Assembly: GCA_965204605.1 (NCBI GenBank)
Contig: OZ241999.1
Span: 364,598 to 428,597, forward strand
Source: Dehalococcoidia bacterium
GTDB taxonomy: Bacteria > Chloroflexota > Dehalococcoidia > Lucifugimonadales > JADFKI01
Length of the DNA stretch: 64,000 bases
Direction: 5' to 3'
Positions 26,967 through 43,308 of the stretch are shown here, in pieces. The position numbers and the translations under genes are program-made. The notes beneath the pieces were generated by a model, which was not told the origin of the DNA, made no database searches, and saw only the letters and a program-made list of their open reading frames with translations. Within the stretch, counting starts at the first letter, position 1, and the number at the start of each line of letters is the position of its first letter.

Positions 26967-27374
26967 TTAGCGCTTGGTGTACTGCTGGGCTTTGCGCGCC
27001 TTCTTGAGGCCGTACTTGCGGCGCTCTTTGACGCGCGGGTCGCGGGTGAGCAGGCCGGCGCGCTTGAGGGGCGCGCGCAGGGTAGGGTCGGCTTCTATCA
27101 GCGCGCGGGATATGCCGTGCCGCAATGCGCCCGCCTGTCCGGTGACGCCGCCGCCGCTGACTTTCGCAATCACGCGGAATTGGCCGCCGGAGTGGGTTAT
27201 CCTGAACGGCTCCATTATCTCGCGCCGCCAGTTGTCCCACGGGAACGCCTCTTCAATCGGCTTGCCGTTCACCACGATGGGGCCGGCTTCCATAAAGAGC
27301 CGAACCCTGGCGACGGCCGCCTTGCGTCTGCCGGTGGCGTAGTAGTAGTTCTCATTGGTCGTGGGCGTGGTCAA
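26967..27374 (-). CDS. rpsI: 30S ribosomal protein S9
   Basis: [16 protein letters not shown] ... GGG.TGQAGA.RHGI.RAL ... ends KR. Confidence 0.95.
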
Positions 27375-27833
27375 TTAGGCTTCCTCCCCCTGCTTGATTG
27401 ATTGGCTTCCCGCGAGCTGCGCTTGATGCGGATGGTCGGGGCCGGCATAGACTTTCATTCGGGCAAGCATATGCCGTCCCAATGCGTTCTTGGGCAGCAT
27501 GCCTTTTACCGAATGCGTGATTACGCGCGTGGGCGTCTTGTCGAGCATCTGCTGCAGGGTGCGCTCGGTAAGCCCGCCGTGGTAGCCGCTGTGCCGGTAG
27601 TACATCTTTTGCTGAAGCTTATTGCCGGTAACCCGAATCTTTTCGGCGTTGACCACTATAACATAGTCGCCGGTGTTCAGGTGCGGCACGTAGATGGGCT
27701 TGTGCTTGCCTTGCAGCAGCATCGCTATTTCGGATGACAGCCTGCCGAGCGTCTTGTCTTCGGCGTCTATGAGGTGCCATTCGGGTTTGAGTTCAGCCGA
27801 TTTCGTCTGATACGGCTTGTTGCTGTTAGCCAT
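27375..27833 (-). CDS. rplM: 50S ribosomal protein L13
   Basis: [31 protein letters not shown]...GD.V.VVNA. Confidence 0.95.
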
Positions 27834-27892
27834 TTGTTCACCAACTCTTTGTGTAGTTTGCGCGGCGCGGGTTCAACGCCGATTTGGGTTCG

Positions 27893-28672
27893 TTATAGCA
27901 ATGTAGGTTCGTCGATCGGATTGGCGGGCGGCGGGAAGTCGGCGTACTCCACGCTCACTAGGCACAATCCCTGCGGCGGCAGCGAGTGCGCCACCTTGTC
28001 GGTCTGTCCGTTGTCTATCATAGTTCGCAGGTCGTCGAGCGAAAGCCTGCCGCGCCCGACGTCGGCCAGCGCGCCCGCCATACGTCGAACTTGATGATGC
28101 AGAAAGGCGTTTGCCGCAACCTCAAAGGTTAGCATATCGCCTGACCGCACTAGCGCAACGCGGCTTACGGAGCGGACGCTGTTCGGCTTGTCCGGCCGAT
28201 GCGCCGCGAACCTGCGAAAGTCGTGCGCTCCGATGAACATTTCGGCCGCCGCTTGCATCCGCAACACGTCCAACGGCTGCGGTATGCGGCAGACAAACCG
28301 CCTTGCCAAGGGCGATGGCGTGGCGCTGTTTAGGATGCGATAGCGGTAGGTTCGGCGGCGGGCGCTGCGCCGCGGATCGAAGTCGTCGCCTACTTTGAAC
28401 GCAGCCTTGACGGCGATGTCGTCGGGCAGGTGGTAGTTCAGCGCGCCGATTGCGGTCGCCGGGGGATGGGCGGCGGCCGTGTCGAAGGCGATTACCTGTC
28501 CCAGGGCGTGTACGCCGGCGTCGGTGCGCCCGGCGGCTTTCACGCGCGCGCATTCGCTGGTGAAACGGCGTATGGCGCGCTCAAGTTCGCCCTGTATCGT
28601 GGGGGCATTCGCTTGGTATTGAAACCCGCGATAGCGCGTCCCTTCGTATTCAATTATTAAGGCAAGTCGCAT
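27893..28672 (-). CDS. truA: tRNA pseudouridine(38-40) synthase TruA
   Basis: MRLALIIEYEGTRYRGFQYQ and AGRTDAGVHALGQV (catalytic Asp). Confidence 0.9.
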   Translation of the reverse strand: MRLALIIEYEGTRYRGFQYQANAPTIQGELERAIRRFTSECARVKAAGRTDAGVHALGQVIAFDTAAAHPPATAIGALNYHLPDDIAVKAAFKVGDDFDPRRSARRRTYRYRILNSATPSPLARRFVCRIPQPLDVLRMQAAAEMFIGAHDFRRFAAHRPDKPNSVRSVSRVALVRSGDMLTFEVAANAFLHHQVRRMAGALADVGRGRLSLDDLRTMIDNGQTDKVAHSLPPQGLCLVSVEYADFPPPANPIDEPTLL

Positions 28673-28688
28673 AGCGGCGGCTTTGGCG

Positions 28689-29042
28689 CTACGGCATGAG
28701 TTCCAGCACGGCCATGGCGGCGGCGTCGCCTTTGCGCGGGATGGTTTTGGTCATGCGGGTGTAGCCGCCGGGGCGGTTCTCATAGCGTTGGGAGAGCTCG
28801 TCGAAGACTTTTCGCACGACGTCGCCGTCGGTCAGAAAGGCGGCGGCGCGGCGGCGGTCGTGTAGGCTACCGGATTTGCCGCGCGTGATGATCTTTTCGG
28901 CGAGCGGGCGCACTTCGCGCGCCTTGGCTTCGGTGGTCATTATGGACTCGTGTCTGAGCAAGTCCGTGACCATACCGCGCAGCATCAGCATTCGGTGCGC
29001 CGTGGGGCGGTTCAGTTTTCTGCCTGAGAGGCGGTGTCTCAT
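28689..29042 (-). CDS. rplQ: 50S ribosomal protein L17
   Basis: MRHRLSGRKLNRPTAHR..MLR.....L..HE.I.TT..KA.E.RP. Confidence 0.95.
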   Translation of the reverse strand: MRHRLSGRKLNRPTAHRMLMLRGMVTDLLRHESIMTTEAKAREVRPLAEKIITRGKSGSLHDRRRAAAFLTDGDVVRKVFDELSQRYENRPGGYTRMTKTIPRKGDAAAMAVLELMP

Positions 29043-29053
29043 AATCTACCTCT

Positions 29054-30091
29054 CTACTCCTCGTAGTTGGCTTGGACGCTTACAGCGCCGTCTTGGTTTT
29101 GGGGGTCTAGGTTGGGCGGCAGCAGATCCATCGCGCGGAGCTGATCGAACAGCTCAGTATAGGACTTTTCGCCGAAGTTGCGTATGCCGATGAGCTCCTC
29201 TTTGCTCTTTTCCAGCACTTCGCCAACCTTGTTGATGTTGGCGCGCTTGAGGCAGTTCAGTGTGCGCGAAGAGAGATCCAGCTTTTCCACAACGATGTTG
29301 TACTGCTCCGGGGATATGCTCGGCACGATGACCGGGCTTCCCACATCGGCGGCGTCAACCTGCGCGTGGGCGAACATAAAGAACTTGTTCATCAGGATGT
29401 CGCCGGATTGGCGCAGGGCGTCTATTGGTTCTACCGTGCCGTCCGTCCAGATGTCCACCACAAGGCGCTCGTAGTCGGTGCGCTGCCCGACTCTGGTGGG
29501 TTCCACGCGGTAGTTGACTTTGCGAATGGGCGTGAACACCGCGTCCACGGGAAGCGCGCCTATCGCTTGGTCGTCTCTGGTGAACGCCTCTTGGTATCCG
29601 ACGCCGTGTTCCACATTGAACTCCACCGCGAGCTTGGCGGAGGGCGAGTCCAGGGTCGCCAGATGGAGTTCGGGGTTGACTATCTCGAAGTTGTTCGACG
29701 ACATAATATCGGCGGCGCACACTTCGCCTTCGCCGGCGACTTCCAGGCGCAGTTTGCCCGGGCTGTCGGACTCGGAGCGCAGCCGAATGCCCTTGACATT
29801 GAGCAGGAACTCGGCTATCTCTTCCTTCATATGCTCGATGGTGCCGTACTCATGCACAACGCCTTCGATTTTCACCCAGGTTACGGCGGCGCCGTTGAGG
29901 GAGTTGTACAGCACGCGGCGGAGCGGGTTGCCTAGGGTCATGCCGTAGCCCGGCTCCAGCGGCTCTACCGCGAATCTGCCGTAGCGCTCGGCGTACTCGA
30001 TCTGCTTGATTTCGGGGTTTAGGGCTACCTCCTCTTCCTCTTCTTCCATGGCGGAAATCGTGGTATATGACTGGAAATCACTTAGGACCAT
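29054..30091 (-). CDS. rpoA: DNA-directed RNA polymerase subunit alpha
   Basis: GYG.TLGN.LRRVL.., and a C-terminal domain with LDLS.R..NCLK.ANI..VGEL. Confidence 0.95.
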   Translation of the reverse strand: MVLSDFQSYTTISAMEEEEEEVALNPEIKQIEYAERYGRFAVEPLEPGYGMTLGNPLRRVLYNSLNGAAVTWVKIEGVVHEYGTIEHMKEEIAEFLLNVKGIRLRSESDSPGKLRLEVAGEGEVCAADIMSSNNFEIVNPELHLATLDSPSAKLAVEFNVEHGVGYQEAFTRDDQAIGALPVDAVFTPIRKVNYRVEPTRVGQRTDYERLVVDIWTDGTVEPIDALRQSGDILMNKFFMFAHAQVDAADVGSPVIVPSISPEQYNIVVEKLDLSSRTLNCLKRANINKVGEVLEKSKEELIGIRNFGEKSYTELFDQLRAMDLLPPNLDPQNQDGAVSVQANYEE

Positions 30092-30191
30092 ATGGTGAAT
30101 CTCCTATTCGACAATTTCAGCGGCGGCGTCTGCCAATAGCGTATGGCAGCGCCGCTTGGGAATGGCAGCATGCGCGGGGCTTGCGGCGTGA

Positions 30192-30824
30192 TTACTTGGA
30201 GTAGAACTCCACTACCAGGCGCACGTCGATGCCCGTGTCTATTTCGGATGGATCGGGCAGCGCCATCATTTCGCCTGCGCGGTTGGCGGCGTCGAGGCGC
30301 AGCCAGATGGGGACGGCGCGCTTGGGCGGGCTGTCGGCGAGGTCCTTGATGAAGTCCGGCACGCTGTCCTTGTTGGCAATCTTCCACGCAATCACATCGC
30401 CGGGCTTGACGAGATAGGACGGGATGTCCATGCGCTTGCCGTTGACGGTGAAGTGGCTGTGGTTGACGAGCTGGCGGGCGTGCTGGCGGGATTCGGCGAA
30501 AGAGAGCCGAAAGACGACGTTGTCGAGGCGGGTTTCCAGCAGTTGGAGCAGGGTATCGCCGGTAACGCCGGGGTTGTCGCGCGCCATTTCGAAATACTTT
30601 CTGAACTGCTTTTCCAGCACGCCGTAGGTAAAGCGCGCCTTCTGCTTTTCGCGAAGCTGGACTGCCCAGTCGGAGGAGCGGCGGCGGCGGGGGATGCTGT
30701 CACCCGGGGGCCTTCTGCGGCGCTCGACCGCGCATCGGGGCGTGAGGCACCGCTCGCCTTTGAGAAAGAGTTTCTCACCTATGCGGCGGCACTTGCGGCA
30801 TACTGCGTCAGTGTATCTTGCCAT
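30192..30824 (-). CDS. rpsD: 30S ribosomal protein S4
   Basis: MARYTDAVCRKCRRIGEKLFLKGERC from ATG 30824. The track start GTG 30839 adds 5 atypical residues. Confidence 0.93.
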   Translation of the reverse strand: MARYTDAVCRKCRRIGEKLFLKGERCLTPRCAVERRRRPPGDSIPRRRRSSDWAVQLREKQKARFTYGVLEKQFRKYFEMARDNPGVTGDTLLQLLETRLDNVVFRLSFAESRQHARQLVNHSHFTVNGKRMDIPSYLVKPGDVIAWKIANKDSVPDFIKDLADSPPKRAVPIWLRLDAANRAGEMMALPDPSEIDTGIDVRLVVEFYSK

Positions 30825-30882
30825 TCTTTTGTTCTTCACCCCTCCAAGAGGATTTTTGTAAATCCGTTTCGTTATGCGCTAA

Positions 30883-31797
30883 CTATGCGCTTCTATAGAA
30901 GCGGCCCGCGCCTTCAGGCGGCGGATTTATGCCCAGTTCCTGCGATAGCGTCTCGACATCGTAGTCTTCGTCGGAGCGCTGCCGCAAGTCTAGGTATAGC
31001 AGCGTCCCCGCGATGCCGCCCACGGGCGTGGTGAGCGCGCCCACAATCGTGCCGGTTACCAGCGCATACGCCGTAGCCAATGCGCCCGTGTCTTCCAGCA
31101 ATCCGCTTGGCAACCCGGTTGCTATGGTCAGCGCTGTGGTTATGCCGATGGTTACCAAGATTATCAGCAGCCAAACTGCGAATGTCCGCAACCAATTGCG
31201 GCGCACAAGCCCAAAGCTTCGTTTTAGCGACTCCAGCGGTCTGCAGCCTTCAATCACGACTGCCGGCGTTGCGACCGACCAGTACACCATCAGCGCAATG
31301 ACCGCCAGTCCGGGCAGTATGAACAGCACAAATCCGACGAACATCAGCGCAATCAGCGCCAGCGACACTACGCCAAGCACAAGCAGCGATAGTATGCGCC
31401 ACCAAGCGCGACTCCAGCATCGGGCTACATCCACGCCGTCGGTGGCGTACTGCATTCCCACTGCGTAGGCGATTGCGGCGTTGACCAGTATGGACAGCAT
31501 AAGCGCGATTACGGCGTATCCCGCAAGCGGCGCTATCATCCCTGCGGTTATGGGCGGCAGGCTTGGCACATCCGCCGCCGTCCGCTCTTCGCCGGCGGGC
31601 TGAAACGCCTCTTGCCAAGTCAGAAACAGGTTTGTCAACGAATCGGCTATCGCCAACTCGAATACGGACAGCGGGATTTGGACAATCAGCGCAATCACGA
31701 TGATTTGGCGAAAATGCTTGCCATAGACGGTAAAGCATTCGCCGATGGTCTCGAACGGGTTGCGTCTGAAAATCGGGCTGCGCGTCTCCGCTTGCAT
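30883..31797 (-). CDS. Polytopic membrane protein (GDPD-membrane-domain/DUF975-like) embedded in the alpha operon
   Basis: 304 aa with about 6-7 TM helices. The N-terminal FRRNPFETIGECFTVYGKHFRQIIVIALIV pattern is typical of that uncharacterised family. Co-oriented between rpsK and rpsD. Confidence 0.5.
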   Translation of the reverse strand: MQAETRSPIFRRNPFETIGECFTVYGKHFRQIIVIALIVQIPLSVFELAIADSLTNLFLTWQEAFQPAGEERTAADVPSLPPITAGMIAPLAGYAVIALMLSILVNAAIAYAVGMQYATDGVDVARCWSRAWWRILSLLVLGVVSLALIALMFVGFVLFILPGLAVIALMVYWSVATPAVVIEGCRPLESLKRSFGLVRRNWLRTFAVWLLIILVTIGITTALTIATGLPSGLLEDTGALATAYALVTGTIVGALTTPVGGIAGTLLYLDLRQRSDEDYDVETLSQELGINPPPEGAGRFYRSA

Positions 31798-31809
31798 AAG
31801 CGCCCGCCG

Positions 31810-32196
31810 TTACTGGCGTCGCCGCTTGCGCGGGCGGGCGCCGTTGTGCGGGATGGGCGTCACGTCGCGGATGCTGGTAACGAACAGCCCTTGCGACAGG
31901 AGCGTGCGGATGGCGGCTTCTCTGCCGGCGCCCGGCCCTCTGACGAAGACTTCCACTTGGCGCAGTCCGTTTTCCATGCCTTTGCGGGCGGCGTCTTCGG
32001 CGGCGCGCTGAGCGGCGAATGCGGTGGACTTGCGCGAGCCGCGAAAGCCGGCGGTGCCGGAGCTGCCCCAGGATAGGACGTTGCCTTCGGGATCCGTCAG
32101 CGTGATTATGGTGTTGTTGAATGTGGATTGGATGTACGCCCGTCCAACCGGAACGGACTTGCGCTCCCTGCGCCGAGTGCGTGGTCTTCGCGGCAT
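31810..32196 (-). CDS. rpsK: 30S ribosomal protein S11
   Basis: [36 protein letters not shown]. Confidence 0.95.
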
Positions 32197-32235
32197 CTAC
32201 GCTGCCTTTCGTTAATGCTGTTAGGGTTGCTTGCG

Positions 32236-32619
32236 CTACTTTCGGTTGACGCTTCTGCCGCGCCCGGCGACCGTCTGCTTTCTGCCGCGCTTGGTGCGGG
32301 CGTTGGTGCGGGTGCGTTGGCCGCGCACGGGCAGGCCGCGGCGGTGGCGGAGGCCGCGGTATGTGCCTACGTCCATAAGGCGGCGGATGTTCATATCCAC
32401 TTCGCGGCGCAGGTCGCCTTCCACAATCTTTTCGCGGTCGACGATTTCGCGAATGCGCGTCAGGTCGGTTTCGTCCAGCTCGCGCACGCGGGGATTGCCC
32501 ACGATGCCCGCCTTGTCGACGATGTCTTTCGCTTGATGCGGCCCTACCCCGTATATGCTGCGCAGTGAGATTTCCACGCGCTTGTTGTCGGGAATGTTCA
32601 CGCCGGATACAATCGCCAT
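32236..32619 (-). CDS. rpsM: 30S ribosomal protein S13
   Basis: [26 protein letters not shown] ... [23 protein letters not shown]. Confidence 0.95.
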
Positions 32620-32637
32620 ACTTCCCTCCTGCCTGGT

Positions 32638-32751
32638 TTAGCCCTGCCGCTGCTTGTGCTTCGGGTTTTCGCAGATGATCATAACCCTGCGGTGCCGCCG
32701 TATCACGCGGCATTTGGCGCATCTTGTTTTTACCGATGCCGATACTTTCAT
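32638..32751 (-). CDS. rpmJ: 50S ribosomal protein L36
   Basis: Below the track cutoff. The reverse strand reads [37 protein letters not shown] (37 aa). Confidence 0.93.
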
Positions 32752-32947
32752 AACATCGCCTTTCTTAACACTGCCGCTTTGCGCTTATCGGAAGCGTAAG
32801 GCAGTAAAACCTCGCTTGAAATTTATCCCCAAATCCCTCTATAGATTAAGGCGTTAGCGCATTCACTTGCCCTCGCAAACTTGCATAAGGGGCGGGAAAT
32901 GCCATTGGGATTGAGACAGCGCAAACTGCTGGCGGCTGCCGCAAGCG

Positions 32948-33166
32948 CTACTTGAAGCGATAGGTTATTCTGCCTCTTGCGAGGTCGTAGGGCGAAAGCT
33001 CCACCAGCACCTTGTCGCCCGGCAGCACGCGGATGAAGTTCAGGCGTATCTTGCCGGACACATACGCCAGAACGCGGTGTCCGTTTGCCAGCTCCACGCG
33101 GAAGCTCGCATTGGGCAGCGATTCGGTTACGGTGCCTTCGACCTCGATGGCTTCCCTTTTAGCCAT
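32948..33166 (-). CDS. infA: Translation initiation factor IF-1
   Basis: [61 protein letters not shown]. Confidence 0.95.
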
Positions 33167-33192
33167 TCGTTCTCCTTATGGAATGCAGCGGG

Positions 33193-33996
33193 CTAGAAGT
33201 AGTAGCCGCTTGGGGTGGACAGCCTTTCTGCGCCGTTTGCGGTGATTGCGATTGTGTCCTCGAAGTGCGCCGACAGGCTGCCGTCTGCGGTAACGACCGT
33301 CCATCCGTCGTCCAGCTGCTTTGTGTAGCGCTTGCCGATGATGAGCATCGGCTCAATGGCAATCGCCATGCCCTTTCTGATGCGCGGGCCGCGGCCGGCT
33401 TTGCCGTGGTTTGGCACTTGCGGGTCTTCATGCAGGGCGCGCCCAATGCCGTGTCCCACATATTTGCGAACTACCGAATAGCCTTGTCCTTCCGCATATA
33501 CTTGAACGGCGTGCGATATATCGCCGATGCGCTTGCCCGCCCGCGCCTGCGCTATGCCCTGCGCCAGCGCCTCGCGGGTTGCGTCTATGAGGCGCTGCGC
33601 CTGCTCCGAAATCTCGCCTACGCCCACGGTGAAGGCGCTGTCGCCGTGAAAGCCGTTCACAATCGCGCCCACGTCCACGCTGAAAATATCGCCCTCTTTC
33701 AGTCGCCTTTTGCCCGGTATGCCGTGTACAATTTCGTCGTTTATAGAGGCGCAAATCGTGCCGGGGAACGGGATGGGCCCGCCCGCCGCATAGCCTTTGA
33801 ATGATGGAACTGCGCCCATGCCGCGTATAACCTTTTCGGCGATCCTATCCAGCGCCGCGGTGGTAACGCCCGGCTTCACGGCGTCCCTGACATGCGCTTT
33901 GGCTTCGGCGACGACTTTGCTCGCCTGCCGCATCAGCTCGATTTCTTTATCGGACTTTATGGTTATCCCGCTAGGGATTCGCTGCGCTGTGGTCAT
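33193..33996 (-). CDS. map: Type I methionine aminopeptidase
   Basis: Metal-ligand contexts D(I)FSVDVG, GFHGD, VGHGIG and IEPM. Confidence 0.92.
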   Translation of the reverse strand: MTTAQRIPSGITIKSDKEIELMRQASKVVAEAKAHVRDAVKPGVTTAALDRIAEKVIRGMGAVPSFKGYAAGGPIPFPGTICASINDEIVHGIPGKRRLKEGDIFSVDVGAIVNGFHGDSAFTVGVGEISEQAQRLIDATREALAQGIAQARAGKRIGDISHAVQVYAEGQGYSVVRKYVGHGIGRALHEDPQVPNHGKAGRGPRIRKGMAIAIEPMLIIGKRYTKQLDDGWTVVTADGSLSAHFEDTIAITANGAERLSTPSGYYF

Positions 33997-34046
33997 ATTT
34001 CCCCAGGATAGACGCCTATTTCCCCCGAATAGACGCCCAAAGGTAC

Positions 34047-34055
34047 ATTATAGCA
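34047..34055 (-). promoter_or_regulatory. Extended -10 element (TGCTATAAT) upstream of map
   Basis: The reverse strand reads TGCTATAAT about 50 nt upstream of the map ATG, in the spacer left after the AIPR gene. No good -35 box. Confidence 0.4.
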
Positions 34056-34112
34056 AATTGGCGCGGCGATTGGCGCTAATTGCGGGTTGGGGGCGAGGGT
34101 GCGCTCGAATGC

Positions 34113-36050
34113 CTAGTTCTCGATCAGCGCTTTTGCAACGAACTCTCTTTGTGTAAGTCCGTCAAGCATAGGCGCAGGGATACTGGTGAACATACTGTTA
34201 TGTTGCGCAATCAGTTGCTCCAGCAAAGGTGAGTGACTGGCTTGCCCCAAAGCCTCGGCTTTCAGAAAACCGTTCAGATCGCCGTTATGGATTTCGTTAA
34301 ACGAAACCTCTTTGTGGGCAGTGTGGGGCGCTGCGCTGCCTATGGTCAGGTATTGATCGATTAGCGCAATTGCCGCGTTATTCAGTATCGTGAACTGCTC
34401 TTGCGCTTCGGTAGCGGTGAGATTTATCACGGCATCGGTCAACACGCTAGTAGGGTCGGGCGGTATCTGAAACTCAGGGGTCAGCAATACCACGTTGTGC
34501 AGCATTCTCATTATGATGTGGTAAAACAAGAACCTTGACTGGCGTCTGCTAGGCAGCTTGGCATTGCGGCCAAAGCCGATGTCATCAGCCGCGCACTTAA
34601 TCATGTACGCTGCATACAAGTCCGCTGCGCCAAAAGCCGGACCTGTGTCCCGCTTTACCATTCGCTCATAGACCGATCCATTTGGCAAGAAAGGCGGGTT
34701 CTTGCTAAATGCTAGTCCGGGAGTCCCGAGCCATCCTGCGCCATAGACCTTGATGAGATCGAACGCATTCACATAGGCATCGAACGGCTTCACTTCAGGA
34801 TGCTGCTTTTCCCATGCTTTGCGAGATTCTATGCCGCCGCGTTGAATCTCAAGGTAGATATTGTAATTTTGCGCCATGTCCCTGGCCCAGGTCTGGAATC
34901 CTCTATCCAATGCCAAGAAGTCTTGCTCGCGAACAGAGTTTTGGGAGTTGGTGTAGCGCGTGATATTTACGATTTCGGCATCATCGCTGCGTACAATTTT
35001 GGTTACAACGCCGCCGCGGCTAGCCAATTCCTTCCATTTGTCGGTGTCTGCGTTTTGTCCGGTGCCGCCGGATTGGAGTTTGCCATCCAACACCTGCCAA
35101 ATAGTGCGGGTTGTCTGGCAACCGTTCACCACATAAGGGTCGTACATGGTGACAGTCCCGTCTTGACGATCGGCTCTGGAGAAGTTGGACACGACGATGG
35201 TTATGCCGTTGTTGTATAGCCCGAACTTGTCGGGTTGGTCGTTTAGAGTGGCGGCGATGCCCTTGTTTATCTTACGGCGGTTGCCCAAGAACTGCCGTAC
35301 ATTGCGCTCGTAGAGTTGATCCAGGTTGCCGGTTCGCTGTTGATATTCTTTGAGGAAATCAAACAGGCGCAACAACGGCACAGTCCCAACCAGCAGATTG
35401 GAAGATTGCTCTACAAAATTGCCTGTAACGGGGACAGACAATTTCGACGGATCGCCGTCGTCCAGCGTTTCCCAAATGGTTCGCAGTGACACTTCCTCGA
35501 CATCAAAGTTTGGGAAGACGCGCTCTCTTCCCAATATCTTGATGTTTTCAAGCGCTTGGCGGTCTTGTTGGGTAATTGGGTCGGTGGTTGCGAAGACCAG
35601 ATTGATGCGGTCGGAGTCGGACGCTTGTTGCTGGAACAGGTCGAGTTTTGCAACCAATTGGCGGCTATCATCGGATAGATGCTGATTCTGACCCGACAGC
35701 GTTGCAATAATCTTATTGCCTTCCACCAGTATGGTTTCCGAACCTGCAAACGCAGTTCCATACTTGCTTTGGACGATATACCATGTATCGCCTTCGATGG
35801 TGTTATCGTCCTGATTAGCGGGGTCGACGTCCGCCCGCTGCAGATATGCGGCGTCTATGCCGCCATCGCTGGAGCCATCGCAGATAACGAAATCGTCGTC
35901 ATCCGTAGTTACGCCAAGCCACTGAGTTATGAGTTTTGCCGCAAAACGTCTGCCCTTCTCCAATGGAGCGGGGTTGCCATCTTCTATTTCAGACAGCCAC
36001 TCTTCGCGAAATTGCTCGTAGGTAACTTTGTCTGATGGCGTGGTTGTCAT
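34113..36050 (-). CDS. AIPR-family abortive-infection/phage-resistance protein with N-terminal nuclease-like domain
   Basis: 645 aa. N-terminus FVICDGSSDGGIDAAY...TWYIVQSKYG (D..DGGID...QxK, Mrr/PD-(D/E)xK-like). Central NVRQFLGNRRKINKGIAATL, FGLYNNGITIV and YVVNGCQTTRTIW match my memory of the AIPR domain (PF10592). Clearly AT-richer than the flanking genes. Confidence 0.75.
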   Translation of the reverse strand: MTTTPSDKVTYEQFREEWLSEIEDGNPAPLEKGRRFAAKLITQWLGVTTDDDDFVICDGSSDGGIDAAYLQRADVDPANQDDNTIEGDTWYIVQSKYGTAFAGSETILVEGNKIIATLSGQNQHLSDDSRQLVAKLDLFQQQASDSDRINLVFATTDPITQQDRQALENIKILGRERVFPNFDVEEVSLRTIWETLDDGDPSKLSVPVTGNFVEQSSNLLVGTVPLLRLFDFLKEYQQRTGNLDQLYERNVRQFLGNRRKINKGIAATLNDQPDKFGLYNNGITIVVSNFSRADRQDGTVTMYDPYVVNGCQTTRTIWQVLDGKLQSGGTGQNADTDKWKELASRGGVVTKIVRSDDAEIVNITRYTNSQNSVREQDFLALDRGFQTWARDMAQNYNIYLEIQRGGIESRKAWEKQHPEVKPFDAYVNAFDLIKVYGAGWLGTPGLAFSKNPPFLPNGSVYERMVKRDTGPAFGAADLYAAYMIKCAADDIGFGRNAKLPSRRQSRFLFYHIIMRMLHNVVLLTPEFQIPPDPTSVLTDAVINLTATEAQEQFTILNNAAIALIDQYLTIGSAAPHTAHKEVSFNEIHNGDLNGFLKAEALGQASHSPLLEQLIAQHNSMFTSIPAPMLDGLTQREFVAKALIEN

Positions 36051-36083
36051 TGATTTCCTCTATATCCTGCAATCGACTTAATC

Positions 36084-36112
36084 AATATATTATTGTCTCA
36101 GTCTAATTGCAA
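36084..36112 (-). promoter_or_regulatory. Putative dedicated promoter of the AIPR gene (TTGCAA-17-TATATT)
   Basis: Minus strand: -35 TTGCAA (36112..36107), 17-nt spacer, -10 TATATT (36089..36084). A GAGGAA RBS lies before ATG 36050. Confidence 0.5.
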
Positions 36113-36113
36113 A

Positions 36114-36139
36114 TCAAACGCAACGGAGCGTTGCTTTGA
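36114..36139 (-). terminator. Stem-loop directly after adk (terminator/attenuator-like)
   Basis: Minus strand: TCAAAGCAACG-ctc-CGTTGCGTTTGA followed by TTTG. Starts 7 nt after the adk stop. Confidence 0.45.
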
Positions 36140-36145
36140 GTTCGC

Positions 36146-36784
36146 CTACCCCAGCGCTTCCACCAGCGCCCGGCCGACGTCGTCCACCGCGCCTTCGCCG
36201 TCGATTTCGCGCAAGATGCCGGCGTTGCGATAGTAGCCTACAAGCGGCTGCGTTTCTGCGAAGTACACGCCTAGCCGCGTCTTGACCACTTCTGGCTTGT
36301 CGTCGTCGCGCTGATAGACTTCACCGTCGCAGTCGTCACATTCACCCTGCGTTTTGGGCGGCGAGTTGAGTTCGTGATACGGCTTTTGGCATTTGCGGCA
36401 TATCAGGCGTCCGGCGAGTCGCCGCACAAGTTCGTCTTCGCGCACATTCACATACAGCGCGCGGTCGATGCCGCCGCTTGCGCTGAGTTCGGCGTCCAGC
36501 GCTTCCGCCTGCGCCAGCGTGCGCGGGAAGCCGTCCAGCACGAAGCCGCCCGCCTGCTCCGGCGCGGAAATCCACGACATCACAAGCCGTATGGTTACAT
36601 CGTCGGGCACCAGCGCGCCTCTGTCCATATACGACTTTGCCAGCAGTCCGAGTTCGGTTTCGTTGCGAAGGTTTTCGCGAAACAGATCGCCGGACGCCGC
36701 GCGCGCGACGCCCAGCGCATCGGCTATGCGCGCCGCCTGCGTCCCTTTGCCCGCCCCCGGCGGTCCCAGCAGTATCACCTTCAC
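36146..36784 (-). CDS. adk: Adenylate kinase (Cys4 zinc lid type)
   Basis: (V)KVILLGPPGAGKGTQ P-loop and lid CRKC...CDDC. The GTG 36784 start is inferred from N-terminal homology; the track ORF extends to TTG 36814. Confidence 0.92.
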   Translation of the reverse strand: MKVILLGPPGAGKGTQAARIADALGVARAASGDLFRENLRNETELGLLAKSYMDRGALVPDDVTIRLVMSWISAPEQAGGFVLDGFPRTLAQAEALDAELSASGGIDRALYVNVREDELVRRLAGRLICRKCQKPYHELNSPPKTQGECDDCDGEVYQRDDDKPEVVKTRLGVYFAETQPLVGYYRNAGILREIDGEGAVDDVGRALVEALG

Positions 36785-36841
36785 CTGTTGAACGGATCCT
36801 TTCCGGAAGCCCAACGCCGTCGGTTTGGCGTTGAGCCTTCG

Positions 36842-38182
36842 CTATCGTATGAAGCCTTCGTAGTTGCGCATCAGAAGCTGCGCCTCGAGTTGGCGCATCG
36901 TGTCCAGCGCCACGCCTACCATAATCAGCAGGCTTGTGCTGCTCAGCGTGAGCGAGCGCACATCGGTTGCCTGCGTAACGAAGAACGGCAGGATGGCGAC
37001 TATGCCCAGGAACAGCGCGCCGCCCCATGTAATTCGCACCAGCACGCGCGTTAAGTATTCCTGCGTGGGACTGCCGGGGCGTATGCCGGGAATAAACCCG
37101 CCGTTGCGCTGCAGATTTCCAGCCAAGTCCTGCTGCTGGAATGTTATGAGCGTGTAGAAGAAGGTGAAAATCACCACCAGCACGAACACAAACGCCCAGT
37201 ACGGGAACGCCGTGGGGTCGAGGCTGTCCGCCAAGAACTGCGCCAGCCGCGAGATGAAGCTGTCGCTGAGCGGGTTGCTGAAGTAGCTTGCGACGGTGCC
37301 GGGCAGTATGACGATGGAAAAGGCGAATATCAGCGGTATCATTCCCGCCGAGTTGACGCGCAGAGGCAGGAATGTGGAGCCTGACTGCCGTTGCATTCTG
37401 CCGCCGCGAAACACGCTGCGTCCGTATTGCACCGGCACGCGCCGCTGCGCTTCGGTGAACATCACGATGAAGAATATCACCACAAACGCGAACAGCCCTA
37501 GGAGCAGCAGTCCCGCCGCCTCATCGCTCTCAAGCAAGCCCTGCCCGACTACCTGCGGGAAGCGCGCCACTATGCCGCCGAATATGATTAGCGATATGCC
37601 GTTGCCCAGACCGCGCTCGGTGATGAGCTCGCCCAGCCATACTAGGAACATCGTTCCCGCAATCATCGACGCCACCATCGCCAGCGTGGGCAGGTTGAAG
37701 CCGAAGTCTATGCCCGGCAGCACGCCCGCCTGCAGCAGCAGCGTGAGCTGACCCCACGACTGCAGCGCCGCTATCGGCACGGTGAGATAGTGCGTGTACT
37801 GGTTGATGCGCTGGCGTCCGAACTCGCCTTCTTGGGAGAGCGCCTTCAGGCTTGGGATGACCGGCACAAGGATTTGCATCACGATGGAAGCGGTGATGTA
37901 GGGATAGACGCCCAGCGCCGCAACGCTGAGGTTCGCCAGGGCGCCGCCGCTGAACAGGTCGAGGAAGCCCAGCAGTTCGCTTGCGCCGAATGCTTGGGAT
38001 AGCGCCTGCGCGTCCACGCCCGGCACCGGCACGTGCGCCACGAACCGGAACACCACCAGCATCGCCAGGGTGAACAGGATTTTGCCGCGCAGATCCGGCA
38101 CGCGCATGGCGTCGATCATCGATTGGATGAGCTGCGGCCTGGACACCTCTTGCGTTCTGGACGCCTGATTTGGGCGCATCAT
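36842..38182 (-). CDS. secY: Preprotein translocase subunit SecY
   Basis: 446 aa with 10 TM helices. Motifs: LR.KILFTL..L.VFR, LFSGGAL...SV.ALG..PYI.ASI, GG.IPGIRPG..T. Confidence 0.95.
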   Translation of the reverse strand: MMRPNQASRTQEVSRPQLIQSMIDAMRVPDLRGKILFTLAMLVVFRFVAHVPVPGVDAQALSQAFGASELLGFLDLFSGGALANLSVAALGVYPYITASIVMQILVPVIPSLKALSQEGEFGRQRINQYTHYLTVPIAALQSWGQLTLLLQAGVLPGIDFGFNLPTLAMVASMIAGTMFLVWLGELITERGLGNGISLIIFGGIVARFPQVVGQGLLESDEAAGLLLLGLFAFVVIFFIVMFTEAQRRVPVQYGRSVFRGGRMQRQSGSTFLPLRVNSAGMIPLIFAFSIVILPGTVASYFSNPLSDSFISRLAQFLADSLDPTAFPYWAFVFVLVVIFTFFYTLITFQQQDLAGNLQRNGGFIPGIRPGSPTQEYLTRVLVRITWGGALFLGIVAILPFFVTQATDVRSLTLSSTSLLIMVGVALDTMRQLEAQLLMRNYEGFIR

Positions 38183-38628
38183 CAGCCGATCTCCCTGACG
38201 GTGCCGCCGGCGGCTTGGATCTTTTGTCGCGCCGATGCGGAGAACTTGTGCGCCGCCACGGTGAGCGGGACGTCGATTTCGCCGCGCCCAAGTATCTTGA
38301 TGGGCTTGTTGGCGTTTCGCACAATGCCTGCGTCGCCTAGCGCGGCGGGGTTCACATCGCTATGGGCGTCGAACGCCGCGAGGCTCGCCACATTCACCAC
38401 GTTGTACTCTACGCGGAATATGTTGGTGAAGCCGCGCACAAACGGGAGCTTCTTGGACAACGGAAGTTGGCCGCCTTCGAAGCCGGGGCGCACGCCGCCG
38501 CCGCTGCGCGATTTCTGTCCCTTCATACCCCTGCCGGCGAAGCTGCCGTAGCCGCTGCTGTCGCCGCGGCCTACGCGGCGTCTTGCGCGCTTTGCGCCCG
38601 CCGGCGGTCTCAATTCGTGCTGCTGCAT
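38182..38628 (-). CDS. rplO: 50S ribosomal protein L15
   Basis: L..L.P..GA.R.R.RVGRG..SG.G...GRG.KGQK.RSG. Confidence 0.93.
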   Translation of the reverse strand: MQQHELRPPAGAKRARRRVGRGDSSGYGSFAGRGMKGQKSRSGGGVRPGFEGGQLPLSKKLPFVRGFTNIFRVEYNVVNVASLAAFDAHSDVNPAALGDAGIVRNANKPIKILGRGEIDVPLTVAAHKFSASARQKIQAAGGTVREIG

Positions 38629-38737
38629 CTCTTAATTGCCTTTATTATTGTTATTATCTTTCGTCCGCGCTATCGCAGATGCGATCATATCCTTCAATGC
38701 TGCGTATCGCGATCAGCGCTTTCGGCTGCGCGCTGCG

Positions 38738-38920
38738 CTACGCCTCACTGACCTCTACAAGGTGGCGCACTTTGAACACCATCCCTCTGATAGAGGGCGT
38801 GTCGTCGTGAACGACCGTTTGGTTGAGCTTGCGCAGTCCGAGCGCCTCGATAGTGCGGCGCTGGTCGCGCTTATAGCCGATGCCGCTGACCTTCCATGTT
38901 ACCGCTATCTTGTTTGCCAT
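38738..38920 (-). CDS. rpmD: 50S ribosomal protein L30
   Basis: [48 protein letters not shown]. Confidence 0.9.
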
Positions 38921-38934
38921 CTTTGAATCGGTCC

Positions 38935-39555
38935 TCAGCCTGCTGTTTGTCGGCGCGCGGCGGCGGCTTGTTGGGCGGCGGCGCGGCGCGCTTGTCGTTG
39001 GCGGATGCGCTCTATGCGCTCGCGCTCGCGCTGCTTGCCGTACTCCACGAGCCGCTTGCGGTGCGCGAACTCTTCGGTGGGGTCTTTCATTTCTTGCAAG
39101 CCATTGAAAGTGGCTTTGACCACATTAACCGGATTTGTGCTGCGCCGAACCTTCGTCATAATGTCTTGAATGCCCGCCAGCTCCACCACGGCGCGCACGG
39201 CGCCGCCCGCGATTACGCCGGTTCCCGGCTGCGCCGGCTTGAGCATAACAACGGAGCCGATGTATTTGGACAGGACTTCGTGGGGGATGGTGCTGCCCTG
39301 CCGCGAGACTTCGATGATGTTCTTGCGCGCTTCGGCGCCGCCTTTTCGCACGGCGTCCGGCACGGCGTCCGCTTTGCCCATGCCGATGCCCACATGCCCG
39401 TCCATATCGCCCACCACCACGACGGCGTTGAAGCTCAGATGGCGGCCGCCCTTCACCACTTTGGCGACGCGGGATATTTTCACCACCCGCTCGGTCAGCG
39501 GGAATTCGTCCTGATCTTCATCGCGACCGCCGCGACGCATCTGTTGAGTTGCCAT
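38935..39555 (-). CDS. rpsE: 30S ribosomal protein S5 (with ~45-aa basic C-terminal extension)
   Basis: V..I.RV.KVVKGGR..SF.A.VVVGD..G.VG.G.GKA..VP.A..K. The tail is ...[31 protein letters not shown]. Confidence 0.93.
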
Positions 39556-39924
39556 CTAAAACACCAAACCTCCCTTGCGGGCGGCATCCGCCAGCGCCTT
39601 GACGCGCCCGTGATACTTGTAGCCGCCTCTGTCGAAGACCACCCTGCTGACGCCCTTTTGCTGCGCGCGCTGCCCGATGAGTTCGCCGACAAGCTCGGCG
39701 AGTTCGGTCTTGCGCTTGTCGGCGTTTCGCTCTTTGACGGCTTGCTCTAGGCTTGACGCCGCCGCCAGCGTAACGCCTTGGCTGTCGTCAATCACCTGGG
39801 CATACACATGGTTCAGGCTGCGATACACGGACAGGCGCGGGCGCTCCGATGTGCCGCCGACTTTGCGGCGCACACGGACGTGCCGCATCACTCTTCTGCC
39901 TTTCTTAGTGCGAATCTTTGCCAT
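39556..39924 (-). CDS. rplR: 50S ribosomal protein L18
   Basis: R...R.RRK..GT.ERPRL.VYRS..H.YAQ.IDD and [22 protein letters not shown]. Confidence 0.93.
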
Positions 39925-39926
39925 CG

Positions 39927-40469
39927 CTACGCCCTCCTGGCGCTCTTGCCGGGCTTGAGACGCACTTGTTCGCCTGCGTAGCGAATGCCCTTGCCCGTAT
40001 AGATGTTGGGCGGTCTGACTTTGCGTATCTGCGCCGCCAGCTGCCCGACCTTTTGCTTGTCAATGCCGCGCACATGCACGCGATTGTTGCCTTCCACCTC
40101 AAGCGTAACGCCGTCCGGCGGCTGAACGTCGACTGGGTGGCTGAACATCACATTCAGCGTTATGCCGCTGCCGTTCTGCTGCACGCGATAGCCCACGCCC
40201 ACCAGTTCGATGCTCTTACTGAAGCCTTCGCTCACGCCCTCGACCATATTGGCGAGCAGGCTGCGCGTAAGCCCGTGCAACGCGCGATGATGCCCTTCGT
40301 CCGACGGGCGGCTGACCACCACTGCGCCGTTGTTTCGCGCAATCGACATATCGGGATGGAACGAATAGGTCAGAACGCCGCGCGCGCCCTTGACCGTAAC
40401 ATCGCTGCCCTGAATATCCACATCCACGCCTGACGGCAGCGGAACGGGCATATTGCCTATTCTGGACAT
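39927..40469 (-). CDS. rplF: 50S ribosomal protein L6
   Basis: MSRIG..P...P.GV.V........VKG..G and YKGKGI.Y-like [10 protein letters not shown]. Confidence 0.93.
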
Positions 40470-40571
40470 TTCTACTCCTTGCCAAACGCTATTCTGCGAC
40501 TTGTGAAAGCGTGGTTCGCGGTTGAAACGAGGAATGCGCGGCGCGTCAACGCCCGCATTAGCGCCGGCCGC

Positions 40572-40973
40572 CTACCACACATAGCAGAGAAGTTCCCCGC
40601 CTATCCGCTCTCTCCACGCCTGCCGTCCGGTCATCACGCCCTTGGATGTGGACAAGATTGCGACGCCAAGCCCGCCGTAGGGACGGGGGATTTCGCCGTT
40701 CTTCACATACACTCGCAGGCCGGGCTTGCTCACTCGCTTCAGTCCGCTTATGGAGGGCTCGTCCGTATCGCGGTAGTGAAGGTAGATTCGAATGTTCGCC
40801 TGCGGAGCGCCTCGCCGATGGATGCTGTAGCCCTCTATGAAGCCCTCGCTTTTGAGGATTTCGGCGATGGACAGCTTCATCTTGGACATCGGCACCGGCA
40901 CCGAATCGTGCCGCGCCATAATGGCGTTGCGAATTCGCGTCAGCATATCCGCTATGGGGTCTGTTACTGGCAT
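40572..40973 (-). CDS. rpsH: 30S ribosomal protein S8
   Basis: [13 protein letters not shown]......V..P.SK.K..IA.IL..EGFI and G.E.LCYVW at the end. Confidence 0.93.
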
Positions 40974-41004
40974 AATGTTCCTCTATGCGTCGGCCGCCAA
41001 GCGG

Positions 41005-41310
41005 CTACCAACTAGCCTTGCGCACGCCGGGCAGCAGCCCTTTGAGCGCCATTTCCCGGAAGGTTATCCGCGACAACCCGAAGTGTCTGATATAGCCGCG
41101 CGGCCTGCCTGTGGTCAGATCGCGGTTGCGCACGCGGTTGGGGTTGGCGTCCCTGGGCAGCAGCGCCAGGTCTTCACGCGCCTGAGCGCGCTCTTCCTGC
41201 GGGCGGCTCATATCTTGAGCGATCGCCCGGAGCTCCGCGCGCCGTTCCGCATACTTGGCGACGACCCGCTTGCGCCTTTCGTTCTTTGCTATCGAAGATT
41301 CCTTAGCCAC
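41005..41310 (-). CDS. rpsN: 30S ribosomal protein S14 (long, non-zinc type)
   Basis: [23 protein letters not shown] and the C-terminal R..FRE.A..G.LPGV.KASW. Confidence 0.9.
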
Positions 41311-41335
41311 TTGTTATTTCCTCACTTGACGGGCT

Positions 41336-41890
41336 CTATGCCACCCGCCTATCCAAGTCCGAGCGCGTGAACGGCATACCCATCAGCTCCAGCATCCGAA
41401 GCCCTTCAGCGTCCGTGCGCGCGGTGGTTACGATGACTATCTGAAGCCCGCGCATCCTATCGATGGAGTTGTAGTCGATCTCAGGGAATATAACCTGTTC
41501 GCGGATGCCCAGCGAGTAATTGCCCCTGCCGTCGAAGGCGTTGCGCGATACGCCCTGAAAGTCGCGTATCCTGGGCAGCGATGAGCTTATCAGTCTGTCG
41601 ATGAACTCGTGCATACGCCTGCCGCGCAGCGTAACGCTGACGCCGATAGGCATGCCTTCTCGTATCTTGAAGCCCGCTATGGACTTTCGGGCGCGCGTGG
41701 TAACCGGCTTCTGTCCCGAAATCGCGGTCAAATCGCGCGTGGCGGCTTCCATCGCCCTTGCGTTGGTCAGCGCTTCGCCCAAGCCGATGTTAAGCGCTAT
41801 CTTGGCGAGGCGCGGCGCCTGCATAGGGCTGGAGTAGCCGAACTCCTGTATCATCACGGGCGCTACCTCATTGCGGATCTTGTCCAGCAT
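41336..41890 (-). CDS. rplE: 50S ribosomal protein L5
   Basis: [36 protein letters not shown] from ATG 41890. The longer track ORF overlaps rplX and is unlikely. GTG 41935 is an alternative start. Confidence 0.9.
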
Positions 41891-41931
41891 GCGCGGCGCG
41901 GGCCTAGGCTGCGAGTTAGCGTTTTGCGTAG

Positions 41932-42243
41932 TCACTCGATCACTTCTCCGCTCTTCTTGGAGACTCTCGCCTTCGTTCCGTCCGCCAATTTGACATATCC
42001 CACGCGCGTGGGCTGTCCGCTGGCGGGGCATATGAGCATCAGATTGGATGCGCGGACGGGCATCTCTTTCTGAATGATGCCACCCTGCCGCACGCCTTGC
42101 GACGGCTTGGTGTGGCGCATAACGACGTTCACGCCTTCCACAAGCGCGGTGTCGTCTTTTGGAAACACCTGTTGAACGCGGCCGGTTTTGCCGCGGTCGC
42201 GTCCCTTAATCACGATAACATTGTCATCCGGGCGCAGCCGCAT
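41932..42243 (-). CDS. rplX: 50S ribosomal protein L24
   Basis: [19 protein letters not shown]......V.VEGVN.V.RH.KP. Confidence 0.92.
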
Positions 42244-42611
42244 TAAAGCACCTCCGGCGCAAGCGATACGATACGCATAAAGTTCTTATCTCGAAGTTCG
42301 CGCGCCACTGGGCCGAATATGCGGGTGCCGCGCGGCATCTGGTCGTCGTTCACCAGCACAGCGGCGTTGTCGTCGAAGCGTATGTGCGAGCCGTCCGGCC
42401 TGCGGTGGCTCTTAGTGGTTCGCACCACCACCGCCTTCACCACTTCGCCCTTGCGGACGTTGGCGGCGGGCGCGGCTTCCTTCACAGACGCCACGATGAT
42501 GTCCCCAAGCCATGCGTACTGCCTACCGCTGCCGCCCGGAATGCCGATGCAGCTTATAGTCTTTGCGCCCGAATTGTCCGCCACTCTAAGGCGCGTGTAT
42601 ATCTGTATCAT
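42243..42611 (-). CDS. rplN: 50S ribosomal protein L14
   Basis: [14 protein letters not shown]...CI ... [11 protein letters not shown]...FMKI.SLAPEVL. Confidence 0.96.
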
Positions 42612-43066
42612 TGCCGATCTGCCTCCGCATCGCCGCTCTGTTCGGCGCTTACCGCTTCGGGCGCCGCTTCCGTCTCAGCGACCGGCGGCGCGTCCGTTTC
42701 CACCGCTACCTTGGAATCGATCGCCGCCGCGGTCGGTTCGTCGATCGGCTGCGGCTCGTCGATCACTTGCGGCTCATCCGCCACGATTATCTCTTCCGGC
42801 TGAATGTCCGCGATCTCTTCACGTTGCAGGATCTCTTCCACGCGCCACCGCTTCAGCTTTGACAGAGGGCGGCATTCGCGGATTCGCACCACATCTCCGA
42901 GCTTGCAGGCGTTCTGCGGGTCGTGCGCCATAAAGCGCGTTTCCCGTCGCACCGGCTTCTTATAGACACGATGCGGCCTGCGCCAACCCACGACGACCAC
43001 CACGGTCTTGTCCATCTTATCGCTGACGACCTTGCCAACCCTAACTTTGCGTCTTTCGTAGCTCAT
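42608..43066 (-). CDS. rpsQ: 30S ribosomal protein S17 with ~68-aa acidic C-terminal extension
   Basis: Core [19 protein letters not shown]......H..Y.K.V.R....MAHD..N.CK.GD.V.I.E.RPLSK.KRW.V. The tail is rich in E/D/P/A ([21 protein letters not shown]...). Confidence 0.9.
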
Positions 43067-43266
43067 AGCGCTTCTGCCGCCAACTCTCTTTCCCGCAGCA
43101 CGGTGTTGATGCGCGCGATGCGCTTGCGCGCTTTGCGGATTTCGTTCACATTGGACAACTGCATCGTCGCCGCCCGAAACCTCAGGTTCATAAGCTCGCG
43201 GTGCGTATCGTGCAACTCGCTGTGAAGCTCATCGTCCGTCAGTGTCCTGATGTCGTCTATTTCCAT
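43063..43266 (-). CDS. rpmC: 50S ribosomal protein L29
   Basis: R.L.D.EL...L.....EL.NLRF..AT.QL.N...I...R..IARI.TVL.E. Confidence 0.9.
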
Positions 43267-43308
43267 TGCATCCCTGCCATCTTGCTAACTGCCGTTTGCG
43301 CGGTTGCG

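Follow-up and report, generated by a model that had tools for sequence, protein, structure and literature searches.

AbiU, the named anti-phage family closest to the gene considered here, is present in about 4% of RefSeq bacterial genomes (bioRxiv 10.64898/2026.09.15.751803). As far as the summary of Dai et al. (2001) given in PMC13064643 conveys, AbiU1 acting alone confers modest phage resistance in Lactococcus, with phage transcription being delayed, and the experimental data for the family are confined to this case. The AlphaFold2 model of AbiU1 (AbiUi) resembles a restriction nuclease (PMC13064643), and AbiU-1 has been placed in the PD-(D/E)xK superfamily and grouped with other PD-(D/E)xK defence proteins (PMC13099982). 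The AIPR core has in turn been assigned to the ParB superfamily, together with DndB's N-terminal domain (PMC3632139, PMC3506569), while the mechanism of AbiU is described as unknown (PMC13064643; bioRxiv 10.64898/2026.09.15.751803). The subject of the present analysis is an AIPR/AbiU-family gene that lies between adk and map in a 64,000-nucleotide stretch of a Dehalococcoidia bacterium (assembly GCA_965204605.1, contig OZ241999.1, positions 364,598 to 428,597), referred to below as the window. It is quite likely that this gene is a functional single-protein anti-phage gene of the AbiU1/AIPR type, which arrived as a horizontally transferred cassette in a hotspot spacer whose cargo turns over.

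An inserted AIPR/AbiU-family gene between adk and map

The locus is made up of the following features.

34113..36050, minus strand: AIPR/AbiU-family gene, an intact full-length open reading frame (ORF) of 645 amino acids (aa)
34099..36139, minus strand: inserted cassette of 2041 bp, as delimited against the empty alleles of contigs L093 and L101
36146..36814, minus strand: adk (adenylate kinase), left core-gene flank, Pfam ADK at E=4e-46 plus ADK_lid; its stop codon, TAG, is 36146..36148
33193..33996, minus strand: map (methionine aminopeptidase), right core-gene flank, Pfam Peptidase_M24 at E=6e-51
36842..38182, minus strand: secY

On the minus strand the genes run in the order rplO-secY-adk-(645-aa ORF)-map-infA-(rpmJ region)-rpsM-rpsK-(304-aa membrane protein)-rpsD-rpoA, and the window flanks match metagenome-assembled genomes (MAGs) of Dehalococcoidia. 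A prediction made earlier from the letters of the window, prior to any database search (the original prediction), had noticed a co-oriented ORF splitting adk from map, had judged it AT-richer than its neighbours and had recognised in it an AIPR protein by a number of short motifs, and all of these observations hold. The ORF is co-oriented with both adk and map, and its GC of 0.516 and third-codon-position GC (GC3) of 0.598 compare with 0.58-0.66 and 0.70-0.81 in the adjoining genes; the window as a whole has a GC of ~0.61, and among its 54 long ORFs the 645-aa ORF has the lowest. Residues 247-465 match Pfam AIPR (PF10592) at E=2.2e-41 and 142.9 bits, far above the cutoff of 25, and all 49 aligned homologs match the same model. 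The match to the PADLOC AbiU model (PDLC02357) is also strong (E=3.2e-39), with residues 35-383 aligned to profile positions 27-359 of 537 and the C-terminal third of the window protein outside the coverage of the model. The peptides DGGID, QSK, NNGITIV and NGCQT all occur in the 645-aa translation, and the quoted nucleotide motifs stand where they had been placed. A search of 1.84 billion cluster representatives returned 3743 relatives at E<=0.001, and ~100 of the top clusters share the full-length architecture of ~620-650 aa. The window gene, which stands alone at its site without a partner gene, is a new member of a known, common and already named defence family.

That the gene was acquired horizontally, as had likewise been proposed, is supported by its absence from the same junction in its relatives. 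A scan with SecY, restricted to one genome per species, yielded 80 Dehalococcoidia/Chloroflexota loci, 71 with adk and map (L009-L087), and in all 71 the two genes lie 26-463 bp apart with no AIPR gene between them. The site is also empty, at 107-127 bp, in four of ten contigs that encode a SecY identical to that of the window (L093, L095, L097 and L101). Presence across the whole clade, which would have pointed to an ancestral gene, was thereby checked, and the gene is not fixed at the adk-map junction. With its aberrant GC and with homologs situated elsewhere in other genomes (see below), the AIPR ORF is an insert and not a housekeeping gene.

In the cassette, the AIPR ORF is preceded by a non-coding leader on the 5' side and followed by a tail of 14 nt. 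At the junctions there is a direct repeat of 6 nt, which is imperfect and reads GCGAAC at 36140..36145, outside the insert, and GCGCAC at 34099..34104, at its inner right end; because this repeat bounds the insert, the cassette boundaries are ambiguous by 6 nt. One copy of the repeat remains in the empty alleles. Terminal repeats of greater length, whether direct or inverted, att sites and a long target-site duplication were looked for at the insert and not found. An integrase or transposase gene is likewise missing from the slot and from the positions next to it, in the window as in the loci of its relatives.

Orthologs of 98%, 92% and 90% identity occupy the exact same junction in L001/L002, L006 and L007, respectively, and even in the more distant L007 the flanks are 92-93% identical to those of the window. 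The ratio of nonsynonymous to synonymous divergence (omega) against the same-site orthologs of L001, L006 and L007 is 0.07-0.19, and the synonymous divergence (dS) of the AIPR gene, at 0.12-0.33, is similar to or slightly higher than that of adk, map, secY and rpsM/K (0.06-0.20). It follows that the AIPR gene was in place, and subject to purifying selection, throughout the divergence of these strains.

Four states of the adk-map spacer

For contigs with this SecY/adk/map there are 63 index blocks; 20 contigs were read, and look-up of the exact SecY protein returned the ten contigs mentioned above (L092-L101). Besides the four empty alleles, this set includes two contigs with the AIPR gene in the slot (L094 and L098) and two with a helicase gene (L099 and L100), the latter being found also in L090 and in L008, the GTDB species representative CBDBDI010000003.1, whose SecY protein is identical to that of the window. 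In L092 (8053..10613) the helicase is split into ORFs of 537 and 315 aa, which reflects either an assembly error or a pseudogene arisen by frameshift. In L096 (ENA ERZ25070167 ctg394343, 3.18 Mb, 195x) the slot holds a 385-aa ORF at 8133..9290 that corresponds to the AIPR protein with residues 172-431 deleted in frame, such that the entire AIPR core is gone; the deletion junction falls at a short IK/LIK similarity, and the remaining N-domain and C-terminal parts are 94% and 88% identical to the window protein. The same ~20-nt spacer is thus found in four states, namely empty, with AIPR, with an 853-aa helicase and with a core-deleted AIPR.

The alternative cargo is as follows.

L008 10054..12615: helicase cargo, 853 aa, DEAD/Helicase_C (DEAH-type), starting 12 nt after adk

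The flanks of L008 are 96% and 95% identical to those of the window, and the AIPR gene is absent; homology to the window ends at 36147, in the adk stop codon, and resumes at 34089. The left helicase junction alters the last adk codon (GGG TAT TAG), and the right one joins directly at CAACCC. Because these junction nucleotides differ from those of the AIPR insert, the helicase represents an independent event in the same ~20-nt interval. Over 4.3 kb, the flanks of the slot-bearing genomes are 95-97% identical to one another, and a neighbour-joining tree of these flanks is star-like and poorly resolved, with the slot states intermixed. A single replacement of AIPR by helicase in one monophyletic clade was considered and is only partly supported, as L008, L099 and L100 group together while L090 and L092 stand apart.

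As for the nature of this cargo, ~460 C-terminal residues of the helicase are without assigned function. Among curated models, TIGR03817 ('helicase/secretion neighborhood DEAH-box helicase') fits it best, with 241 bits against a cutoff of 874, and its PADLOC matches (BrxHI, SngC and DpdF) cover the helicase core only. A homolog of 82% identity (L091) adjoins SMC/AAA_23, MNT/HepT and HerA-like genes. In close relatives, the same core-gene-flanked position is found to hold different cargo or none, and the adk-map spacer is a small accessory-gene hotspot flanked by core genes. 'Accessory-gene hotspot' is what the data show; 'defence hotspot' would be too strong, because the helicase is not a proven defence gene.

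These alleles bear on the possibility that the AIPR gene is a decaying remnant, intact in the window by chance and no longer expressed or selected. Such decay would account for the in-frame deletion in L096, which has the highest stated coverage among the retrieved contigs, for the four empty alleles within the same species complex, and for the split helicase of L092, which would indicate that cargo in the slot decays. However, the window ORF is full length and carries every residue that is invariant in the family, and the omega values were obtained against three orthologs at synonymous divergences sufficient for many substitutions to have been filtered by selection. We therefore regard a remnant as quite improbable.

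It has also to be asked whether the gene could be a lineage-specific housekeeping or regulatory factor, kept in the operon for co-expression with the translation machinery and without a role in immunity. Its co-orientation inside the supercluster, the purifying selection acting on it and its retention at the site by strains with flanks of 92-97% identity would all agree with such a role. However, genomes with an identical SecY lack the gene, carry the helicase in its place or carry the core-deleted copy, it is absent from the 71 related loci, its composition is foreign, and close homologs are found in unrelated surroundings, in one case beside Cas3 and a HEPN/MNT pair. In addition, the hairpin at the 5' edge of the insert (see below) would uncouple the gene from the operon. 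This explanation is extremely unlikely, and the empty and deleted alleles already go most of the way to refuting it.

The homologs in question, at 68-75% identity, are solitary and co-oriented after a housekeeping gene, at sites unrelated to one another.

L003: AIPR homolog after pyrD
L004 (L004/L005): AIPR homolog after a MOSC gene
L088: AIPR homolog after coaBC; Cas3 and a HEPN/MNT pair are close by
L089: AIPR homolog after thiE

The adk-map site of the L088 genome itself (L082) is empty. AIPR genes at different sites share the ORF only, their upstream and downstream untranslated sequences being unrelated, and the genes of L003 and L004 have a GC of 0.49-0.51 against flanks of 0.64-0.66. The AIPR subfamily is dense at 63-75% identity, with >120 clusters at 90%.

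This distribution allows for a scenario in which the AIPR gene would itself be mobile and selfish, in the manner of a free-standing homing endonuclease, its own nuclease cutting near the insertion point and repair copying the gene in. Such a mechanism would explain how a lone gene comes to lie between housekeeping genes without an integrase or transposase, as it does, co-oriented, at five unrelated sites (after adk, pyrD, MOSC, coaBC and thiE) with no mobility genes nearby. The nuclease-like N-domain, the GC of 0.49-0.52 at the three measured sites in high-GC hosts, the imperfect 6-nt junction repeat with one copy left in empty alleles and the very dense cloud of homologs would fit as well. 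However, the flanks of the different sites share no sequence in which a common target could be seen; the same spacer took up an unrelated helicase in the absence of any AIPR, which means that the site itself explains at least part of the pattern; and a repeat matching at five of six positions easily arises by chance or microhomology. Further, the family has been experimentally tied to phage resistance, as outlined in PMC13064643, and a dS comparable to that of the flanks points to long vertical residence and not to active homing. A homing origin of this kind is accordingly judged quite unlikely.

A related scenario, which appears unlikely but somewhat less so, would attribute the pattern to the spacer. 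More than a tolerated spot, the ~20-nt interval may be a specifically targeted landing pad, at which an unrecognised mechanism captures single-gene cargo, whether promoter-bearing or promoter-less, and which would serve the cell as an expression platform for immune genes within its most conserved operon cluster. The mechanism could be site-specific recombination at the conserved CAATTAGCGCC...TGCTATAAT, or nuclease homing driven by AIPR, and its traces would be seen in the imperfect 6-nt repeat, in the two independent insertions with their differing junctions and in the way this AIPR subfamily has spread as single genes.

To return to the preferred reading, that of a horizontally arrived anti-phage gene in a hotspot with cargo turnover, the events at the spacer may be reconstructed as follows. 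A 2.0-kb cassette, bringing its own leader with a hairpin, a promoter-like site and a ribosome-binding site (RBS), arrived by horizontal transfer and settled between the adk stop codon and an older promoter-like element of map. Different cargo (AIPR and the 853-aa helicase) entered the spacer at least twice, at different junctions, and was lost or degraded in some lineages. Alleles were probably also exchanged between strains by homologous recombination through the near-identical adk/secY and map/infA flanks. The secY-adk-map-infA stretch, a widely used syntenic and phylogenetic anchor, is therefore not untouchable, as in this one uncultured Dehalococcoidia species complex it hosts a one-gene hotspot of at least four states. 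The series of empty, intact, alternative-cargo and core-deleted or split alleles offers a natural system in which the turnover of a hotspot free of mobility genes may be followed in near-identical backgrounds.

Domains, putative expression signals and a possible mode of action

The window protein is divided into three parts.

35316..36050, minus strand: N-terminal domain, residues 1-245, with a predicted PD-(D/E)xK-like core
34656..35312, minus strand: AIPR core, residues 247-465, the PF10592 match
34116..34655, minus strand: C-terminal all-helical region, residues 466-645, by predicted secondary structure (pLDDT 80-93)

The full-length AlphaFold2 model has a pLDDT of 79 and a pTM of 0.48; because this model is multi-domain, residues 1-245 were re-predicted alone (pLDDT 79, pTM 0.71). 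Conservation was computed over 74 divergent full-length homologs of 25-65% identity. The N-terminal domain is predicted to adopt an alpha-beta-beta-beta-alpha-beta core (H29-45/E54-56/E67-71/E89-95/H104-118/E148-155), on which a motif of the catalytic D...(D/E/Q)xK type is present, D62 and D66 lying where strand 2 begins and Q94-S-K96 lying in strand 3. D62, G64, D66, Q94, K96, E110 and K113 are kept in 81-89% of the homologs. Foldseek matches of this domain to the PDB, all of them sub-threshold (E=0.02-0.3), include the Rpb5 N-domain, EcoO109I, Can2, Nt.BspD6I, HamA and Mus81, and the best are dominated by restriction-endonuclease-like folds. In Pfam, the isolated N- and C-terminal regions gave only noise at E<=10, and a single homolog matched RRG7 at E=0.039. 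The N-terminal domain is thus best described as resembling a PD-(D/E)xK nuclease, given its motif, its predicted topology, its weak fold matches and the published statements on AbiU. The original prediction of an Mrr/PD-(D/E)xK nuclease stands as regards motif, topology and sub-threshold fold similarity, but finds no support from hidden Markov models (HMMs).

In the AIPR core, N250, R252, N262, T268, N280-N281-G282, P305, N309-G310-C311-Q312-T313, N368, Q370, D377 and E401 are conserved in 95-100% of the same homologs, and the window protein carries every family-invariant residue. Fold searches of the core, which is mixed alpha/beta in the model, against the viral models of BFVD returned as best match a phage AIPR protein at E=4e-10 and, below threshold, DUF262/GmrSD-N proteins at E=0.016-0.024 (probability 0.5-0.7); the match to SspE is likewise sub-threshold (E=0.23). 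The full-length model yielded nothing below E=0.18 against the PDB in Foldseek, and neither the single protein nor the 49-sequence profile found a true match among PDB sequences, which, with the reviews cited at the outset (PMC13064643; bioRxiv 10.64898/2026.09.15.751803), agrees with the earlier remark that the mechanism of AIPR proteins is poorly understood. The C-terminal region has no family match in Pfam and is possibly a specificity or regulatory module. A HEPN RNase was considered for this region on account of RFLFYH (R506-x4-H511) and rejected, as most homologs have F, Y or M at position 511 and no HEPN HMM matches the window protein.

The signals that surround the ORF are the following.

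36109..36145, minus strand: hairpin resembling a terminator, on the 5' edge of the insert, with its core stem at 36120..36134 and a fold of -15.9 kcal/mol
36084..36112, minus strand: sigma-70-like TTGCAA-17-TATATT inside the insert, 9 of 12 consensus matches
36055..36060, minus strand: Shine-Dalgarno-like GAGGAA, 4 nt upstream of the ATG at 36050
34047..34055, minus strand: extended -10-like TGCTATAAT upstream of map, in the conserved right flank outside the insert
33996..34037, minus strand: tandem 21-nt repeat of the map leader, between the -10-like box and the ATG of map, with a Shine-Dalgarno-like GGGGGAAAT in each unit

Hairpin, promoter-like site and RBS are all part of the insert and are absent from the empty alleles, which bears out the view that the gene is self-contained, the insert bringing with it 95 nt of upstream sequence. 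The stem-loop said to follow adk does exist but belongs to the insert, not to adk. Its fold is matched by 13 of 200 shuffled sequences (z=-1.5), its U-tract is poor, and its stem is not well kept in L007. TTGCAA-17-TATATT is kept in L001, L006, L007 and L096; four promoter-like sites were counted, where shuffled sequences lead one to expect 2.3 +/- 1.4. Both elements, promoter and terminator, accordingly match at the level of consensus only and remain putative.

The extended -10-like box was thought to have been regained by map after the insertion, and this is not the case, because TGCTATAAT (TGnTATAAT) is common to the AIPR, helicase and empty alleles and because TGGTATAAT stands at the same position in L009-L011, which are the nearest three relatives whose site is empty. 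It is probable that the insert landed at a pre-existing operon seam, just upstream of an older promoter-like element, and the disruption of the operon is therefore smaller than first implied. The 21-nt repeat of the map leader is present in two copies in the window and in three in L008 (12700..12770), L093 and L099, and it is absent from the outgroups L009-L011; its fold is not distinctive (z=-0.4 and +0.9). An exact 22-mer of the map leader gave 0 matches among JGI metagenome contigs, and for this reason the window lineage is apparently absent from that collection. An exact look-up of the window AIPR protein in the assembly collection returned no record.

In the proposed mode of action, which combines the domain content with the published work on AbiU, the ParB-like AIPR core would serve as a sensor or switch, binding nucleic acid or a nucleotide, and would control the N-terminal PD-(D/E)xK-like effector. 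Once infection is sensed, this nuclease may cut phage (or host) DNA and so lower phage transcription, and the helical C-terminal region may set specificity. The 5'-edge hairpin may shield the gene from strong read-through out of the supercluster and secY-adk, in which case the potentially toxic protein would then be made from its own weak promoter. The helicase cargo, unlike AIPR, has neither hairpin nor promoter-like site and would be coupled to the expression of adk. The slot thereby lets one ask whether strong neighbouring expression is exploited, as by the helicase, or insulated against, as by the AIPR hairpin and promoter-like site, and the dense, well-conserved AIPR subfamily, with its clearly marked residues, is suited to structural and biochemical work.

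Several points weigh against a defence function as proposed. Defence by the window protein or its close relatives is argued from a distant homolog, AbiU1, and the PADLOC model aligns only to residues 35-383 of the protein. AbiU genes are often linked to restriction-modification genes, of which there are none at the adk-map site, and the helicase that shares the slot is not demonstrably a defence gene, given its core-only PADLOC matches and its sub-cutoff TIGR03817 score. Further, the promoter and terminator are calls made at the level of motifs, the hairpin not being statistically distinctive, and the N-terminal domain has neither HMM support as a nuclease nor a Foldseek match in the PDB at E<=0.001.

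Elsewhere in the window, a 304-aa multi-pass membrane protein is encoded between rpsK and rpsD (30883..31797, minus strand), with weak, sub-threshold matches to DUF7847, DUF7544 and GPDPase_memb; homologs of 25-95% identity hold the same position in many, though not all, related Dehalococcoidia loci, and the gene is a second, older non-ribosomal insertion in the alpha operon. A 474-aa ORF (9027..10451, plus strand) shows a GC3 of 0.528 (GC 0.554), lower than any other in the window, and has a borderline C-terminal match to the DpnII restriction endonuclease (E=4.9e-5, 23.2 bits against a cutoff of 23), and may be another horizontally acquired nuclease-like gene. The true start of adk is probably at ~36778, because its relatives begin with MKVILLG. 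An Rfam scan of the window (1..64000) found no family at gathering score, including the ribosomal-protein operon leaders known in other phyla.

Comparison with known systems

The closest described system is AbiU1 (AbiUi) of Lactococcus lactis, the AbiU of DefenseFinder and PADLOC (COG1479). Like the window protein, it is the product of a single gene, of about 600-650 aa, with strong HMM matches and with an N-region resembling a restriction-type nuclease followed by an AIPR core, and the published system needs no partner gene (PMC13064643). The window protein differs in being a distant homolog from a Chloroflexota host, known from sequence alone, and its C-terminal 260 residues are specific to its subfamily, as the AbiU model aligns to residues 35-383 only. 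In addition, there is no adjacent AbiU2/HEPN gene and no restriction-modification neighbour at the window site.

The AIPR core is common also to MzaE of the five-gene MZA system, and membership of this system was considered and rejected. Residues 245-384 match MzaE models at only 61.8 bits, against an equivalog cutoff of 1050, and none of the mzaABCD genes adjoins the window gene, whose neighbours are adk and map.

A further, tentative likeness is to DUF262/GmrS (the N-domain of GmrSD and SspE) and DndB, ParB/Srx-superfamily domains of DNA-modification-dependent defence. By our own reading, NGCQT of the AIPR core stands at the place of the DGQ(Q/H)R-type motif of these domains, and weak fold matches, all of them sub-threshold (E 0.016-0.3), include a 'DNA-sulfur modification-associated protein'. 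Unlike DUF262/GmrS proteins, the window protein has no HNH/DUF1524 partner domain, and its candidate nuclease is the N-terminal PD-(D/E)xK-like domain.

As a site, the adk-map slot resembles the cDHS of P. aeruginosa (PMC10250203) and the defence-island hotspots of E. coli (PMC10121019) in having a fixed, core-flanked position, variable or empty content, and turnover without visible mobility genes. However, it is very small, with a single gene at a time in a ~20-nt spacer; it lies inside the ribosomal-protein/secY-adk-map supercluster, with its cargo co-oriented; a defence function is unproven for the helicase, one of its two cargo types; and it is known from uncultured Dehalococcoidia MAGs. 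The gene itself is ordinary; its address and the four-state polymorphism of the site are a modest but real surprise.

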